A DNA stretch of 64,000 nt from Flavobacterium sp. (GTDB lineage Bacteria > Bacteroidota > Bacteroidia > Flavobacteriales > Flavobacteriaceae). The stretch covers positions 7,767 to 71,766 of the forward strand of contig NZ_JBKBLM010000004.1 of assembly GCF_046296355.1 (NCBI RefSeq), in the 5' to 3' direction. Every line of letters starts with the position of its first letter. The stretch's first letter is position 1. Below, in pieces: positions 6,116 to 63,630 of the stretch. The position numbers and the translations under genes are program-made. The notes below the pieces were generated by a model. The model had not been told where the DNA came from, did no database searches, and saw nothing but the letters and a program-made list of their open reading frames with translations.

Positions 6116-6258
6116 AACGTTTTTTTTAAAATACCGATTTAGTGTAATTTTTTAACGATGATTGACTCAAAAAAGTTGGATTTACACCTTAATATAATAT
6201 GCTGTTTTTTACCATTATTTTGAATTAAAATTCCCAACACAAAAGACGCCAACTCATT

Positions 6259-6373
6259 AGCCCCGATTGCAGAGGAAATCAACTTTGTCAAAGTTTTGAA
6301 CTTTGACAAAGTTATTGCAACGGAAAGCGGGAACACGGATTCCAAGCGCGCCCAAACCTCTCGCTCCAAAACT
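6259..6373 (+). repeat. Flavo-1-like dispersed element, copy 1, with a nested palindrome in its loop
   Basis: AGCCCCGAT-TGCAGAGGAAATC-[AACTTTGTCAAAGTT TTG AACTTTGACAAAGTT]-ATTGCAACGGAAAGCGGGA; 3' tail resembles that of 40605-40696. Confidence 0.7.
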
Positions 6374-23053: not shown

Positions 23054-23083
23054 TTGCCTAATCAAAAAAGAAGATTATCTTTG
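23054..23083 (+). promoter_or_regulatory. Bacteroidota sigma70 promoter of rpsO
   Basis: TTG (23054-23056), 19 nt spacer, TATCTTTG (23076-23083). Confidence 0.8.
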
Positions 23084-23088
23084 CACAC

Positions 23089-23109
23089 GAATTGAGAAAA
23101 CCTCAATTC
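23089..23109 (+). promoter_or_regulatory. rpsO leader hairpin (candidate S15 autoregulatory leader)
   Basis: GAATTGAG-AAAAC-CTCAATTC, a perfect 8-bp stem at the predicted transcript 5' end. Confidence 0.55.
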
Positions 23110-23140
23110 ATACATAATAATCATTTAAAATAATATTGGA

Positions 23141-23410
23141 ATGTATTTAACTAAAGAAACAAAAGCTGAAATCTTCGCTAAACACGGAGGAAAAGCTGAA
23201 AACACTGGATCTGCTGAAGGGCAAATCGCTTTGTTTACTTTCAGAATCTCTCACTTAACAGAGCACTTGAAAAAAAATCGTCACGATTACAACACTGAGC
23301 GCTCGTTAGTACTTTTAGTAGGTAAAAGAAGAAGTCTTCTTGACTACTTGAAGAAAAAAGAGATTAACAGATATCGTGAGATTATCAAAGAATTAGGTAT
23401 TAGAAAATAA
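23141..23410 (+). CDS. rpsO: 30S ribosomal protein S15
   Basis: 'NTGSAEGQIALFT', 'HLKKNRHD', 'LVGKRRSLLDYL'. Confidence 0.98.
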   Translation: MYLTKETKAEIFAKHGGKAENTGSAEGQIALFTFRISHLTEHLKKNRHDYNTERSLVLLVGKRRSLLDYLKKKEINRYREIIKELGIRK

Positions 23411-27715: not shown

Positions 27716-27804
27716 GGGCGTTGCCTTCGGCCGGGCTATCCACTACAATCTTTTTGATTTCCCTTTGGGTAATCAAAAAGGATTTCCGTTCCTATCCCTA
27801 ACGC
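27716..27804 (-). repeat. Flavo-1-like dispersed element, copy 3
   Basis: Minus strand GCGTTAGGGAT-AGGAACGGAAATC-[hairpin]-GATTGTAGTGGATAG-CCC-GGCCGAAGGC-AACGC; same core as 6259-6373. Confidence 0.7.
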
Positions 27805-27830
27805 AATCTCTTTAAAACAGAATCTTTTGT

Positions 27831-39899: not shown

Positions 39900-39944
39900 T
39901 GGCTAAAGATATAAAAAAAGCCCAAGTAATTCTTGAGCTTTGTG

Positions 39945-40018
39945 TGACCCTGAAAGGAGTCGAACCTTCAACCGCTGGAGCCGAAATCCAGTGCTCTATC
40001 CAATTGAGCTACAGAGCC
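39945..40018 (-). tRNA. tRNA-Arg (anticodon UCG)
   Basis: Minus strand GGCTCTG TA GCTC AATTGGATA GAGC A CTGGA TT-TCG-GC TCCAG CGGTT GAAGG TTCGACT CCTTT CAGGGTC A; full cloverleaf, CCA not encoded. Confidence 0.96.
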
Positions 40019-40022
40019 ATTT

Positions 40023-40104
40023 TAAAGTTTGAAGTACGAAGTACAGAGTTTGAAGATAAATCTACTTCGTACTTCGTACTTCCAACTTCGCACTTTGTAC
40101 TTTT
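40023..40104. repeat. Inverted pair of 7-mer tandem arrays with no gene between them
   Basis: 5 units like YGAAGTW (40023-40057), AAATC spacer, 6 units like WACTTCG (40063-40104). Confidence 0.85.
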
Positions 40105-40106
40105 AA

Positions 40107-40556
40107 TTATGTCAATAATTTTTTAACAATAGTCGAAATGGTTTTACCATCGGTTTTACCGGCTAAGGCAGCTGAAGCTTTCCCCATAACTTGTCCCATG
40201 GATGCCATACCTGAGAAACCGCCTTCAGTGATAATTTTTGCAACCGTAGTTTCTACTTCTGCTTCAGATAATTGTGCCGGCAAAAACTTTTCGATTACGG
40301 CTACTTGAGCCAATTCGGGTGCGGCTAAGTCGGCACGGTTTTGCTCGGTATAAATGTTGGCGCTGTCTTTTCTTTGCTTAACCAAACGTTGCAACAATTT
40401 AATTTCATCTTCAGAAGATAAAGTATCGCTGGCACCGGCTTCGGTTTTGGCTAAAATGATGCCTGATTTTATGGCTCTTAAAGCTTCTAAAGCAACGGTG
40501 TCTTTGGCTCTCATGGCGTTTTTCATTTCGTCCATGATTTGTGTTTCTAAACTCAT
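40107..40556 (-). CDS. GatB/YqeY domain protein
   Basis: 'MKNAMRAKD...LRAIKS', 'VKQRKDSA', 'MGQVMG...GKTDGK'. Confidence 0.93.
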   Translation of the reverse strand: MSLETQIMDEMKNAMRAKDTVALEALRAIKSGIILAKTEAGASDTLSSEDEIKLLQRLVKQRKDSANIYTEQNRADLAAPELAQVAVIEKFLPAQLSEAEVETTVAKIITEGGFSGMASMGQVMGKASAALAGKTDGKTISTIVKKLLT

Positions 40557-40558
40557 CT

Positions 40559-40593
40559 TGATATTAGATTTTAAATATTAGATATTAAATATG
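40559..40593. repeat. Solo 7-mer tandem arm directly upstream of the yqeY start
   Basis: TGATATT AGATTTT AAATATT AGATATT AAATATG; same unit as the four-helix-bundle flanks. Confidence 0.8.
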
Positions 40594-40604
40594 ATTGGCT
40601 TTTA

Positions 40605-40696
40605 AGCCCCGATGGGAGCAAGTATCCTCGAAGAGATACTGCGGACAGCGGGAAAATGGATTACTGAAACTGCCCGAACCTTTCGCTTCCCAAACT
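40605..40696 (+). repeat. Flavo-1-like dispersed element, copy 2
   Basis: AGCCCCGAT-GGGAGCAAGTATC-CTCGAAGA-GATACTGCGGACAG-CGGGA plus a tail 'GCCCGAACCTTTCGCTTCCCAAACT' like copy 1. Confidence 0.7.
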
Positions 40697-40731
40697 AAAT
40701 TTGGGACTAGCCTAAAAAGCACTGCGAAGTT

Positions 40732-40773
40732 AAAAAAAATAACCCGAAAATCTCAGTGAAATTTTCGGGTTAT
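40732..40773 (-). terminator. Terminator ending the dcw cluster after ftsZ
   Basis: ATAACCCGAAAAT-9nt-ATTTTCGGGTTAT with an A8 run. Confidence 0.85.
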
Positions 40774-48695: not shown

Positions 48696-48697
48696 TT

Positions 48698-49131
48698 TAA
48701 TATTAAATTTTAGATTTTAGATTTTAGATATTAAATATTTATATGTTTTGTTGTTCAATCTGTTGTTTACTGTTTTTAAGGTTGAAACGAAAATTGCCAC
48801 TAGTTCACTTGATTCTTTTAGAGGAAATGCTAATTCAGATTTACTTATCCAGTTCATTTCGGCTATAATTTCAAGCCAAAATTGAGCTTCATCAACTTCT
48901 TCTAAAACAATATTCAACTTTGCTACAAACTCTTTATCACTTCTTGCTCTACAAACCGCTCTATAATTTGCTCCAACAGAAGTTGAGCTCTTGGCCAATT
49001 GATTAATGACAACTCTTGATGAAATTGAATTCGGCATTTTCTCGACTAAATTTAAAATCAGTAAAGAGAATTGCTTAGTTCTATTTTTTAACTCATCGTT
49101 TGTCATATTTGATATTTAATATCTAATATTT
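48698..49131 (-). mobile_element. Putative four-helix-bundle cassette: gene plus inverted 7-mer repeat arms, between murD and ftsW
   Basis: Left arm 48698-48739 (ARATWTT x6), right arm 49104-49131 (reverse-complement unit x4); 13-bp perfect inverted core. Confidence 0.6.
48717..49106 (-). CDS. Four-helix-bundle protein (23S rRNA IVP / TIGR02436 family, Avd-like fold)
   Basis: 'QLAKSSTSVGANY', 'EFVAKLNIVLEEVDEAQFWLE'; 129 aa. Confidence 0.9.
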   Translation of the reverse strand: MTNDELKNRTKQFSLLILNLVEKMPNSISSRVVINQLAKSSTSVGANYRAVCRARSDKEFVAKLNIVLEEVDEAQFWLEIIAEMNWISKSELAFPLKESSELVAIFVSTLKTVNNRLNNKTYKYLISKI

Positions 49132-49135
49132 TATA

Positions 49136-61610: not shown

Positions 61611-63588
61611 ATAGGTATGTGGAACGTATTCTTCCAATTTTGTTGGTTAAACTGACTTTTAACTTATTGTAATCGTTGATAGTCGCCATAATTTCTACTG
61701 AATCATTTTCTTCCTCAGCTTTGAAATTATTCATCAAATCCAGAATCAATTTGTTGATCAAATATTCGCGAAGTGAAATAATTGTTTCGGAAACATATTG
61801 ACTTACATTTTGGATTTTGGTTTTCACGTAAATATGTTTGGTTTCCCAATTGTGCAGCAACTCTTTTTCTTCAGACATTAAAATATCAGTAACCATTTGG
61901 GAATGTTCTGGCGACAGTTGCATTAAATAATGCTCAATATTGAACTCCTCGTTTTGGTTAAAATAATTGATTAAATCAGTATAAATTTCCTGAAATATCG
62001 GATTGGCCAATTCTACTTCGTCTTCTTGCAGACTGAGATAGATTCTCTGAAACACTTTAAAGGTATTGGTTTCCTTTTCTTCTGTCATTTCACCTTCTTC
62101 ATTGGCTTTTAGAATATAATCGTCGAAATCGGCTTCTTGTGAGCCGTATAGCAATAACATTTCTAAAATCTTTCGCTCTAAGTCATAAACGATATTGACT
62201 TTCTCTTGAGCAACTTGCAGTTCATTCTTAACCACTTCAAAAGCCTTTTGCTCGGTTTTGAGTTTTTTGCCGGCTTCCGAAATGTCTTTTTGCACTAATT
62301 GCGCTAGGGTATTTAGCAAAACCTGTTCAGAAATGTCCATAATTCGGGCCGTTTCCTGAATGTAGATTTCTCTTTTGATTCGGTCCGGAATTTTGGAAAT
62401 ACTCACCACCATATCGCGAATTAAATCGGCTTTCTTGATAGGATCATTATTGGCTTCATTCATCAAAAGTGACGCTTTGAACTGAATAAAATCCTTGGCA
62501 TTGTTTTCTAAATAGGAAACTAAATCTTCATACGAGTTCTTTCGCGCAAAACTATCCGGATCATCGCCATCAGGAAAAGTACAGACTTTTACGTTCATGC
62601 CTTCTTCCAAAATCAAATCGATTCCGCGAACAGAAGCACGCAATCCGGCGGCATCGCCATCAAAAAGTACGGTAATATTTTTGGTCAAACGATTGATTAA
62701 TCGAATTTGGTCAGGAGTCAAAGCCGTTCCCGAAGATGCAACCACATTTTCAATGCCGGCTTGATGCAACTGAATCACATCGGTATAACCTTCGACTAAA
62801 TAACAGTTGTTTTGCTTGGCAATGGCTTGTTTGGCATGGAAAATTCCATACAAAACTTTACTTTTATGGTAAATATCGCTTTCGGGCGAATTGAGGTATT
62901 TGGCCGCTTTTTTATCATTGGTCAAAATCCTACCACCAAAACCTAAGTTTCTTCCGGACAAACTTTGAATCGGAAACATGACTCTGCCTTTGAATCGGTC
63001 AAAATGTTTTCCGTCTTCTCTGGTGATGGTCAGTCCGACTTTTTCTAAGAATTCTAATTGGTAACCTTTGGCCAAAGCTTCTTTGGTAAAGGCATCCCAA
63101 GATTCGGGCGAATAACCTAAACCAAATTTGGCAATGGTTTCATTGGTAAAACCTCTTTCTTTGAAATAAGACAACCCAATGGCTTTACCTTCTTCGGTAT
63201 TTAAAAGCGTATCGTGGAAATAACTTTTGGCAAATTCCGATACCAAATACATGCTTTCCTTCTCATTGGCTTCAATTTTATCTTCTTGAGAAACTTCGGT
63301 TTCTTCAATCTCGATATTGTATTTATTGGCCAAAAAACGAATCGCTTCCGGATATGTAAAGTGCTCGTGTTCCATCAAGAAAGTCACGACACTTCCGCCT
63401 TTTCCTGAACTAAAATCTTTCCAAATTTGCTTTACGGGTGACACCATAAACGAAGGTGAGCGCTCATCCGAAAACGGACTCAAGCCTTTGTAATTGCTTC
63501 CGGCGCGTTTAAGTTGGACGAAATCACCGATGACTTCTTCCACGCGTGCGGTTTCAAATACTTTATCTATGGTTTCGCGGGTAATCAA
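61609..63588 (-). CDS. dnaG: DNA primase
   Basis: Zn-finger-like 'GLSPFSDERSPSF', 'FGGR', 'KYLNSPE', TOPRIM 'VEGYTD', 'FDGDAAG', 'DPD'; TTG start. Confidence 0.97.
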   Translation of the reverse strand: MITRETIDKVFETARVEEVIGDFVQLKRAGSNYKGLSPFSDERSPSFMVSPVKQIWKDFSSGKGGSVVTFLMEHEHFTYPEAIRFLANKYNIEIEETEVSQEDKIEANEKESMYLVSEFAKSYFHDTLLNTEEGKAIGLSYFKERGFTNETIAKFGLGYSPESWDAFTKEALAKGYQLEFLEKVGLTITREDGKHFDRFKGRVMFPIQSLSGRNLGFGGRILTNDKKAAKYLNSPESDIYHKSKVLYGIFHAKQAIAKQNNCYLVEGYTDVIQLHQAGIENVVASSGTALTPDQIRLINRLTKNITVLFDGDAAGLRASVRGIDLILEEGMNVKVCTFPDGDDPDSFARKNSYEDLVSYLENNAKDFIQFKASLLMNEANNDPIKKADLIRDMVVSISKIPDRIKREIYIQETARIMDISEQVLLNTLAQLVQKDISEAGKKLKTEQKAFEVVKNELQVAQEKVNIVYDLERKILEMLLLYGSQEADFDDYILKANEEGEMTEEKETNTFKVFQRIYLSLQEDEVELANPIFQEIYTDLINYFNQNEEFNIEHYLMQLSPEHSQMVTDILMSEEKELLHNWETKHIYVKTKIQNVSQYVSETIISLREYLINKLILDLMNNFKAEEENDSVEIMATINDYNKLKVSLTNKIGRIRSTYL

Positions 63589-63590
63589 AA

Positions 63591-63630
63591 TAGATTGTTA
63601 GATTGTTAGATTATTAGATTGTTAGAAATC
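63591..63630 (-). repeat. 8-mer tandem tract ending 2 nt before the dnaG start codon
   Basis: Plus strand TAGATTGT TAGATTGT TAGATTAT TAGATTGT TAGAAATC. Confidence 0.85.

Follow-up and report, generated by a model that had tools for sequence, protein, structure and literature searches.

A heptad-armed, gene-less hairpin at the yqeY–tRNA-Arg junction of Flavobacterium and its possible role in RNA processing

What keeps a hairpin between the same two genes when its sequence is exchanged from one species to the next? The question is raised by the 88-nt spacer separating yqeY from a tRNA-Arg gene in a 64-kb stretch of Flavobacterium sp. DNA (hereafter the window, meaning the whole stretch analysed, to which all coordinates refer; yqeY, spacer and tRNA-Arg all lie on its minus strand). 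An earlier note on this DNA took the spacer for an emptied or deleted version of a cassette that carries a four-helix-bundle (4HB) gene between murD and ftsW. Comparison of the window with 80 orthologous Flavobacterium loci (81 junctions, ~430 kb; loci labelled L001 upward) suggests that a hairpin devoid of any open reading frame (ORF) has held the yqeY–tRNA-Arg junction in most of the genus while its sequence was swapped repeatedly. The reading that we favour, with moderate confidence and by analogy with characterized systems, is that of an ORF-less stem, similar to the intervening sequences (IVSs) of ribosomal RNA, which lies within a yqeY–tRNA-Arg co-transcript and probably serves as an RNase III processing or stability site.

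The element is defined by its repeats. The gene yqeY (40107..40556; listed as an ORF, PF09424 at E = 4e-41) encodes a GatB/YqeY-domain protein of 149 aa, and its TAA stop lies 2 nt before the first array. From there the spacer reads TT, six heptads (AAAAGTA CAAAGTG CGAAGTT GGAAGTA CGAAGTA CGAAGTA; 5' arm, 40063..40104), a central GATTT recognized by reading the sequence (40058..40062), five inverted heptads (ATCTTCA AACTCTG TACTTCG TACTTCA AACTTTA; 3' arm, 40023..40057) and AAAT, the 3' arm terminating 4 nt short of tRNA-Arg (anticodon TCG, 39944..40018; ARAGORN, and Rfam RF00005 at 64.7 bits). The 5' arm is G-rich and C-poor; the 3' arm contains C, is G-poor and is more degenerate. Re-reading of 40023-40104 showed the coordinates and heptad parsing of the earlier note to be exact. 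Tandem Repeats Finder reports a period of 7 with 5.7 copies and 81% matches at 40063-40102, and an inverted-repeat finder reports 25-nt arms that are 88% complementary. Folded as RNA, the spacer reaches -31.2 kcal/mol against -14.1 +/- 2.6 in 200 dinucleotide shuffles (z = -6.47), none of which folds as well. The predicted stem-loop (40024..40089), a candidate RNase III substrate by analogy, has a main stem of 6+15+3 pairs in which 40089..40064 is paired with 40049..40024, leaving the first two heptads of the 5' arm outside. The minimum-free-energy structure counts 30 pairs in total, ~24-26 of them in the main stem, in agreement with the imperfect hairpin of roughly 30 bp proposed before, and its poorly paired apical region, at about 40050-40063, is wider than GATTT.

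Such arrays are rare in the window and do not arise in its shuffled versions. A scan for periods of 7, 8 and 9 nt across the 64 kb found five period-7 arrays and one period-8 array, falling into four loci (the yqeY leader, the yqeY–tRNA hairpin, the murD–ftsW cassette and the region upstream of dnaG), and none of any of these periods in five shuffles of the window. The spacer thus holds a heptanucleotide long simple-sequence repeat in the usual sense, with at least three tandem 7-nt copies in non-coding DNA and above the chance level. No Rfam family covers the hairpin, and a relaxed threshold returned only chance matches to microRNA precursors, which are typical for any long hairpin.

The same junction was then read across the genus. 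The tRNA-Arg gene comes after yqeY in 79 of the 80 orthologous loci, the remaining one (L020) stopping before the complete tRNA. A hairpin with z <= -3 is present at 51 of the 81 junctions, 10 have spacers shorter than 30 nt and no hairpin (the shortest measuring 8-10 nt), and in three the spacer exceeds 200 nt and contains an unrelated GIY-YIG insertion. Of the 51 hairpins, 33 have arms with a best period of 7 nt, eight of 8 nt and seven of 9 nt. The stems start at a median of 4 nt after the yqeY stop and end at a median of 6 nt before the tRNA. The ~430 kb of orthologous loci have hardly any periodic arrays outside this spacer and the stretch immediately preceding the yqeY ATG. The units themselves are unrelated among lineages, including GAAGTAC, TTAGAC(N2-3), GGAATTA, AGAATTT, GTTTCAG, AAATTCC, TTCGATTA, TAAGAC and more; F. 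johnsoniae has an ATTTTAG-type hairpin at the junction. The rule drawn in the earlier note, that the arm unit varies whereas period and inversion are kept, therefore holds at this junction across the 81 species compared, and it extends to the arms around 4HB genes of other phyla described below.

The units turn over quickly. In the order of the yqeY tree, close relatives differ in unit family in a mosaic fashion, with GTAC in the window, TTAGAC in L002 and L003, an 8-nt spacer retaining only TCTAAAAG in L004, GGAATTA in L025 and GTAC again in L033. The closest named genome, F. buctense (L002; 98% YqeY identity), matches the window at 93-100% nucleotide identity in the flanks, but other sequence, sharply bordered, takes the place of the hairpin, the leader array of yqeY and much of the tRNA gene. 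We reject simple vertical drift as an explanation of this pattern, since the hairpin, the leader array and part of the tRNA are unalignable between such similar flanks. All four combinations of hairpin type and tRNA type were found, which argues for recombination between alleles and not for gradual drift. Two very different tRNA-Arg(TCG) sequences occur among very close relatives independently of hairpin type (the window against L002, L003 and L033), one common to the window and F. terrisoli and the other present in F. buctense and most other species. In metagenomes, close strains have TTAGA-type or ACGATTT-type arrays at the yqeY–tRNA-Arg site, and one ~95%-identical strain is missing 23 nt of the 5' arm, a loss that we take as unit slippage. 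Same-unit arrays recur in several copies within the same genomes or metagenomes, an observation that concerns the arrays rather than whole elements. No direct repeat that might be a target-site duplication was seen at the element borders (TAATT / AAAATGG), and the borders against F. buctense are sharp and without duplication.

What, then, could such an element do between an mRNA and a tRNA? We infer that yqeY and tRNA-Arg are co-transcribed, on three grounds. First, the ten species with spacers shorter than 30 nt leave little or no room for a promoter. Second, the hairpin is not followed by a T run, and the only terminator-like site detected by the terminator scan from yqeY to the next gene is a hairpin with a T run directly after tRNA-Arg (39917..39941). 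Third, RNA-derived contigs, which may include DNA, span yqeY, spacer and tRNA in F. covae and in the F. johnsoniae group; for the window organism, a member of a hot-spring metagenome, a look for RNA runs found none. The common transcript would start from a promoter just after the ftsZ terminator, where a putative -7 box TAACTTCG (40725..40732, minus strand) is the probable promoter of the yqeY–tRNA unit because TAnnTTCGCA is conserved in relatives, and would end at the terminator-like site after the tRNA.

The position of a stable hairpin directly after a stop codon would also suit an intrinsic terminator or attenuator of yqeY, or a structure hiding a tRNA promoter, and the apical TAGATTTA matches the Bacteroidetes -7 box, for which the consensus is TAnnTTTG, at seven of eight positions. 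We nevertheless regard this explanation as highly improbable. The stem is followed by AAACTTTAAAAT, with no T run, and is not listed by the terminator scan, so that it lacks the form of an intrinsic terminator (a G+C-rich stem plus a T run); the real terminator-like site lies after the tRNA. A promoter in the spacer was likewise rejected: an exact TAnnTTTG is absent from the minus strand between 39944 and 40760, a sigma-70 scan stays at the chance level, and the species with spacers of 8-25 nt indicate that the tRNA needs no promoter there.

Under the processing-site reading, the two arms would pair in the co-transcript into a predicted helix of ~24-26 bp, reaching from a few nucleotides after the yqeY stop to 4-6 nt before position +1 of the tRNA. 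A helix of such length would be a substrate of RNase III, which is specific for double strands, and the cut would separate mRNA and tRNA precursor. A stem remnant left on the yqeY mRNA would be able to block 3' exonucleases, and the tRNA would retain a short leader to be removed by RNase P. Cleavage and the stabilization of the yqeY 3' end are proposed because of two analogues discussed below, the IVS of Coxiella and the hmw hairpin of Haemophilus influenzae. In the DNA, slippage of units, deletion and allelic recombination alter the arms, and the sequence is therefore renewed quickly, whereas position, period, inversion and polarity persist, as the comparison shows.

Several observations weigh against this reading. 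About a fifth to a third of the species have no hairpin, which makes it dispensable. The RNA data consist of assembled contigs, in which RNA ends and cleavage are not visible. G-U pairs, expected to betray the strand that is folded, are equally frequent in sense (72/1291) and antisense (81/1285; Wilcoxon p = 0.47), leaving no strand bias. Compensatory change within unit families is almost nil, and this scarcity means that pairing could be kept by a process acting on DNA rather than by selection on RNA; the covariation test on the TTAGAC and GTAC families had too few variable pairs to be informative. In the TTAGA family, moreover, the pentamer TTAGA/TCTAA is invariant and the linkers vary and are often mismatched, hinting at recognition of a motif over pure pairing. 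RNA-level selection is not demonstrated by the G-U asymmetry and covariation tests.

These results bear directly on a different explanation, in which the hairpin has no function and results from DNA mechanics, or is a piece of selfish DNA: a heptad repeat expanded by polymerase slippage and turned into a quasi-palindrome by template switching or arm-to-arm correction, tolerated in a spacer that has no other task. Among the long simple-sequence repeats of prokaryotes, heptamers are reported to be the most frequent, slippage being the suggested cause (Mrazek 2007, as cited in PMC4679880). Not only are strand asymmetry and within-family covariation both absent, but the hairpin is missing or cleanly deleted in about 10-20 species (L004, for example), copy number differs between strains, and same-unit arrays are dispersed and multi-copy. 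Such an origin is a real possibility that we nonetheless judge unlikely, as it does not account for arrays that cluster at exactly the yqeY–tRNA-Arg junction in dozens of species even though the unit has changed completely, for arms around 4HB genes that stay complementary 400 nt apart, or for the polarity of the arms. Specifically, the arm near the upstream stop contains G and is C-poor, and the arm near the downstream gene is the converse; the 5' arm has more G than C in 41 of the 46 hairpins with unequal counts (49 scored; p = 4e-8, a nominal value as species are not independent), and of the metagenomic GAAGTAC hairpins 25 begin with the G-rich arm, against 9 that begin with the other. Because a palindrome reads alike on both strands, this polarity is intrinsic to the element, and neutral palindromes should not show it. 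One idea is that it reflects avoidance of a transiently exposed C-rich Rho-loading site; another is that it is the fossil of a ribosome-binding leader of a 4HB ORF.

The second idea leads to the gene-bearing sibling of the hairpin (48696..49135), all parts of which are again on the minus strand. Its 5' arm, TATAAAATATTAGATATTAAATATCAAAT (49107..49135), lies between the murD stop and the ATG of a 4HB gene (48717..49106; 129 aa; assigned by Pfam to PF05635, the 23S rRNA-intervening-sequence protein family, with orthologs at murD–ftsW across Flavobacterium), and its 3' arm, ATATTTA ATATCTA AAATCTA AAATCTA AAATTTA ATATTAAA (48696..48742), abuts the ftsW ATG and has the 4HB stop inside. The likeness that the earlier note saw between this cassette and the yqeY–tRNA hairpin was well founded: both have a 5' arm after a stop, an inverted 3' arm before the next gene, a period of 7 and the G-containing arm on the 5' side. 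The murD–ftsW 4HB gene is an ortholog kept genus-wide at 68-100% identity, and its two arrays are always of the same kinds, TTAGAnn at the 5' side and nnTCTAA directly against ftsW. The window protein has 129 aa against ~120 aa in most of the closest homologs listed, its frame (48717-48745) running into the 3' heptad arm and stopping at an array TAA, which adds ...YKYLISKI. In F. piscisymbiosum (L208:1-100), a second PF05635 gene sits one junction upstream (mraY–murD) beside short periodic TTTTTAATT-type arrays, indicating that the dcw cluster can hold more than one such cassette.

In metagenomes, a scan with AAGTACRAAGTACRAAGTA returned at least 120 loci, of 30-68% G+C, including about 34 gene-less hairpins; among these GAAGTAC-array loci (at least 120), gene-less hairpins outnumber gene-bearing cassettes ~10:1. 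A 4HB gene lies between GAAGTAC arms in L109 and between AAAGTAC-type arms in L196, where it is truncated at its N terminus (the first ~30 Pfam profile positions are missing). In L088 only the first ~25 codons of the gene are left between GAAGTAC arms 121 nt apart; this locus is a real deletion derivative, a decayed cassette. The 4HB cassettes of other phyla have heptad arms of five other units. In the distant bacteria of L209 (argJ–4HB–argB; GAGTGGA/TCCACTC arms), L219 (GAAGGAA-GAAGTAA/TTACTTC) and L225 (TGACGAG/ACTCGTC), the upstream stop codon marks the start of the 5' arm, which is the G-rich one of the pair. Two paralogous loci recur in the same samples (L219-L230), each combining a 4HB gene with genes for a Laminin_G_3 protein of ~2900 aa and a protein of ~300 aa, and their units differ (GAAGGAA/GAAGTAA against TGACGAG) whereas the arms match within each locus. 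Duplexes between arms across the ~400-nt 4HB gene reach z = -2.6 to -9.1, with 0 of 200 shuffles as good in seven of ten cassettes; arms that match over such a distance would be explained more readily by pairing in RNA than by a hairpin in DNA. Ordinary genes (def and others) are also found between such arrays (L101, L105 and L186).

Is the yqeY–tRNA hairpin, then, what remains of such a cassette after loss of its gene, non-autonomous in the way of a miniature inverted-repeat transposable element derived from an insertion sequence? This is a claim about origin, compatible with a role in processing, and the architecture and polarity of the hairpin are identical to those of cassettes. Of the two signs to which the earlier note had tied its emptied cassette, one is missing, as the spacers of the 80 orthologous loci contain no ORF, 4HB gene or recognizable remnant; the other exists, namely 4HB genes flanked by the same or a near-identical unit (GAAGTAC in L109 and AAAGTAC in L196). 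The truncated genes of L088 and L196 provide further parallels, as does the decaying ORF of the Coxiella IVS, which underwent a 176-bp deletion in one strain (PMC4990558). A purine-rich 5' arm would also serve an ORF as ribosome-binding leader, so that the polarity of gene-less hairpins could be its fossil. At this junction, however, the loop of the window is only 5-14 nt long and holds no gene remnant, the ORF-less state is universal, and ordinary genes, too, sit between such arrays elsewhere. Since the 4HB gene at murD–ftsW is stably inherited, repeated gain and loss at yqeY–tRNA with no surviving intermediate would not be parsimonious. An emptied or deleted cassette at this site is therefore unsupported, although not refuted, and we consider it improbable; the stem may equally be the primary element, enclosing a gene only sometimes.

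A broader scheme would unite these observations. PF05635 genes and inverted heptad arms would form one cross-phylum family of intervening sequences, residing in operon spacers and in rRNA and excised by RNase III, with arms kept matched or regenerated by a dedicated process, perhaps involving the 4HB protein, which is related to Avd, the accessory protein of diversity-generating retroelements. The far commoner gene-less hairpins, the yqeY–tRNA one among them, would be non-autonomous derivatives, some of them co-opted as processing sites at conserved junctions. We offer this scheme as speculative and on balance rather unlikely.

Two of the arrays in the window are unpaired and belong to gene starts. 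One, ATATTTA ATATCTA ATATTTA AAATCTA ATATCAAG (40560..40592, minus strand), abuts the yqeY ATG and is multi-copy in the source metagenome; the other has an 8-nt period (AATCTAAC x4.5; 63588..63628, minus strand) and lies at the listed dnaG start (TTG 63588). Both fold no better, or worse, than shuffles, and both consist of direct repeats ending near a start codon, as do the TAACTGA-type leader arrays; the yqeY–tRNA element departs from that type, as its 3' arm ends 4 nt before a tRNA and not at a start codon. In F. buctense (L002:2440-2500 and L002:2950-3037), the yqeY leader array and the hairpin 3' arm share an identical 21-mer, CTAAGAAGTCTAATTATCTAA, so that pairing of the 5' arm could be local or could span the entire yqeY mRNA; an 18-mer is shared likewise in L077. 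As a general mechanism, pairing of the leader array with the hairpin 5' arm was rejected, being possible in F. buctense and not in the window.

Such leader arrays invite the suggestion that the repeats are sites for a protein reading single-stranded heptads (a cold-shock protein, S1 or another factor), with the hairpin acting as a switch that hides or exposes them for yqeY or the downstream gene. The unpaired TCTAA-type arrays abutting the yqeY, ftsW and dnaG starts in the window fold less well than shuffles and resemble the TAACTGA leader arrays (PMC4679880), the TTAGA/TCTAA pentamer is invariant amid variable linkers, and the 21-mer of L002 gives the 5' arm two possible partners. But the downstream gene is a tRNA, which leaves no translation start to control, the leader array and hairpin arms of the window are not complementary, and the many units would require many readers or a non-specific one; we find this explanation very unlikely. 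An insulator presenting stop codons in three frames was also rejected for the yqeY–tRNA element: the TCTAA/TTAGA units do contain TAA/TAG stops, but GAAGTAC arrays have no stop in any frame, and in L109 the ORF reads through them.

Other structured elements lie around these arrays. The window contains two full Flavo-1 RNA motifs of 56 bits each and a third, sub-threshold one of 33.6 bits (gathering score 42); the three occupy 40601-40659 (+), 27725-27807 (-) and 6255-6338 (+), the sub-threshold motif being located in the yqeY leader region on the opposite strand. The yqeY leaders of the relatives L033, L051, L057 and L075 have variable apical insertions (TGTCACCCTGAGCG...GTCGAAGGGC). A further element, at 23076-23143 (+), is the S15-Flavobacteria ribosomal-protein leader (RF03161, 78.6 bits), an ordinary feature that fits the Flavobacterium origin of the window.

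The three long spacers (322-786 nt) present a separate phenomenon. In L018 (L018:2947-3374), L041 and L030, a small gene for a GIY-YIG nuclease (PF01541, E = 5e-15) sits immediately before tRNA-Arg. In front of this gene, the 5' half of the tRNA is present as a duplicate that extends up to the anticodon and bears a 20-nt palindrome in its D loop; in L030 the half-tRNA is present in five tandem copies. The insertion looks like a homing-type element aimed at tRNA-Arg. The palindrome, CCTG(C/T)CTGCCG(G/A)CAGGCAGG, has nine exact-pattern matches, every one in the D loop of a half-tRNA (L018, L030, L041), and no match in the window; similar palindromes were seen by eye in the L022 yqeY leader and in L089, and it may be a small dispersed element of Flavobacterium resembling repetitive extragenic palindromic (REP) sequences.

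IVSs and the S23p/4HB genes are usually discussed as oddities of rRNA genes. Our survey suggests that ordinary genes in several phyla often have the same build between them (a G-rich heptad arm, an optional 4HB gene and a complementary C-containing arm), and that the arms follow a polarity rule not expected of neutral palindromes. If RNase III cuts these stems, the splitting of operon transcripts would be widespread and overlooked in bacteria whose translation is not led by Shine-Dalgarno sequences, and three separate literatures, on heptamer repeats, IVSs and 4HB proteins, would be joined. With its ATTTTAG-type hairpin at this very junction, the genetically tractable F. johnsoniae makes the question directly testable.

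How does the yqeY–tRNA element relate to known systems? IVSs without an ORF also exist, as in Salmonella. In a literature search, we did not find described either inverted heptad arms around non-rRNA 4HB genes or, between an mRNA and a tRNA, a conserved heptad hairpin without an ORF. IVSs have been known since a 1990 report from Salmonella (cited in PMC4990558), and after ~35 years their function and origin are still unclear. The 23S IVS of Coxiella burnetii has a 28-bp terminal-inverted-repeat stem, an S23p (PF05635) ORF that is decaying in its loop, and two or three tandem GACAGAT heptamers in its 5' part, strain-variable in number, and RNase III cuts in the stem (PMC4990558). The yqeY–tRNA element resembles the IVSs of C. 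burnetii and Leptospira (PMC4990558) in its stem-forming inverted repeats, tandem 5' heptamers and, at the level of its siblings, the optional loop ORF of the 4HB family. Its stem of 6+15+3 bp spans the two or so helical turns, at least, that characterize an IVS, and its 5' arm combines six tandem heptads with a 23-nt difference between strains; a PF05635 ORF, optional in IVSs, is absent from its loop and present in the sibling at 48696-49135. It differs in location, as IVSs are inserted in helices 25 or 45 of 23S rRNA whereas this element lies between an mRNA and a tRNA, outside any 23S or 16S rRNA helix (an Rfam scan found no rRNA in the window). It differs further in that its gene-bearing sibling sits between murD and ftsW, that both arms are visibly heptad arrays and that cleavage is proposed here only by analogy.

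Intergenic heptanucleotide repeats include the short tandemly repeated repetitive (STRR) heptamers of Cyanobacteria. Similar to these, the element consists of tandem 7-nt units that are non-coding, often lie a few nucleotides before a gene start and vary between close relatives, a description that also fits the single arrays before yqeY and dnaG. The TAACTGA arrays of Beggiatoaceae, Cyanobacteria and some Bacteroidetes are direct heptamer repeats near gene starts, and only one of 170 repeat sets in the BOGUAY genome was noted as inverted (PMC4679880); by contrast, the yqeY–tRNA element is an inverted pair forming a hairpin. REP sequences and bacterial interspersed mosaic elements (BIMEs) share with it the imperfect palindromes that follow stop codons inside operons, the multiple copies (of its arrays) and the presumed protection of upstream mRNA from 3' exonucleases, but REPs have no internal 7-nt period, follow one species-wide consensus and are tied to RAYT transposases.

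Another parallel for a repeat-built stem is the 5' untranslated region of hmw in H. influenzae, where an ATCTTTC heptamer array in the transcript supplies one arm of a long hairpin that RNase III processes (PMC12721329). The hmw hairpin shares the heptanucleotide repeat arm within a long hairpin and the strain-variable number of repeats (PMC12721329), changes in which are reported to depend on RNase III. There, however, only the left arm is repetitive, the right arm being a G-rich non-repeat, and a phase-variable adhesin is controlled, whereas the yqeY–tRNA-Arg hairpin is built of arrays on both sides and has housekeeping genes as its neighbours. It is best classed as an extra-ribosomal, ORF-less and doubly heptad-armed relative of IVSs and heptamer hairpins, standing outside the rRNA location by which IVSs are defined.

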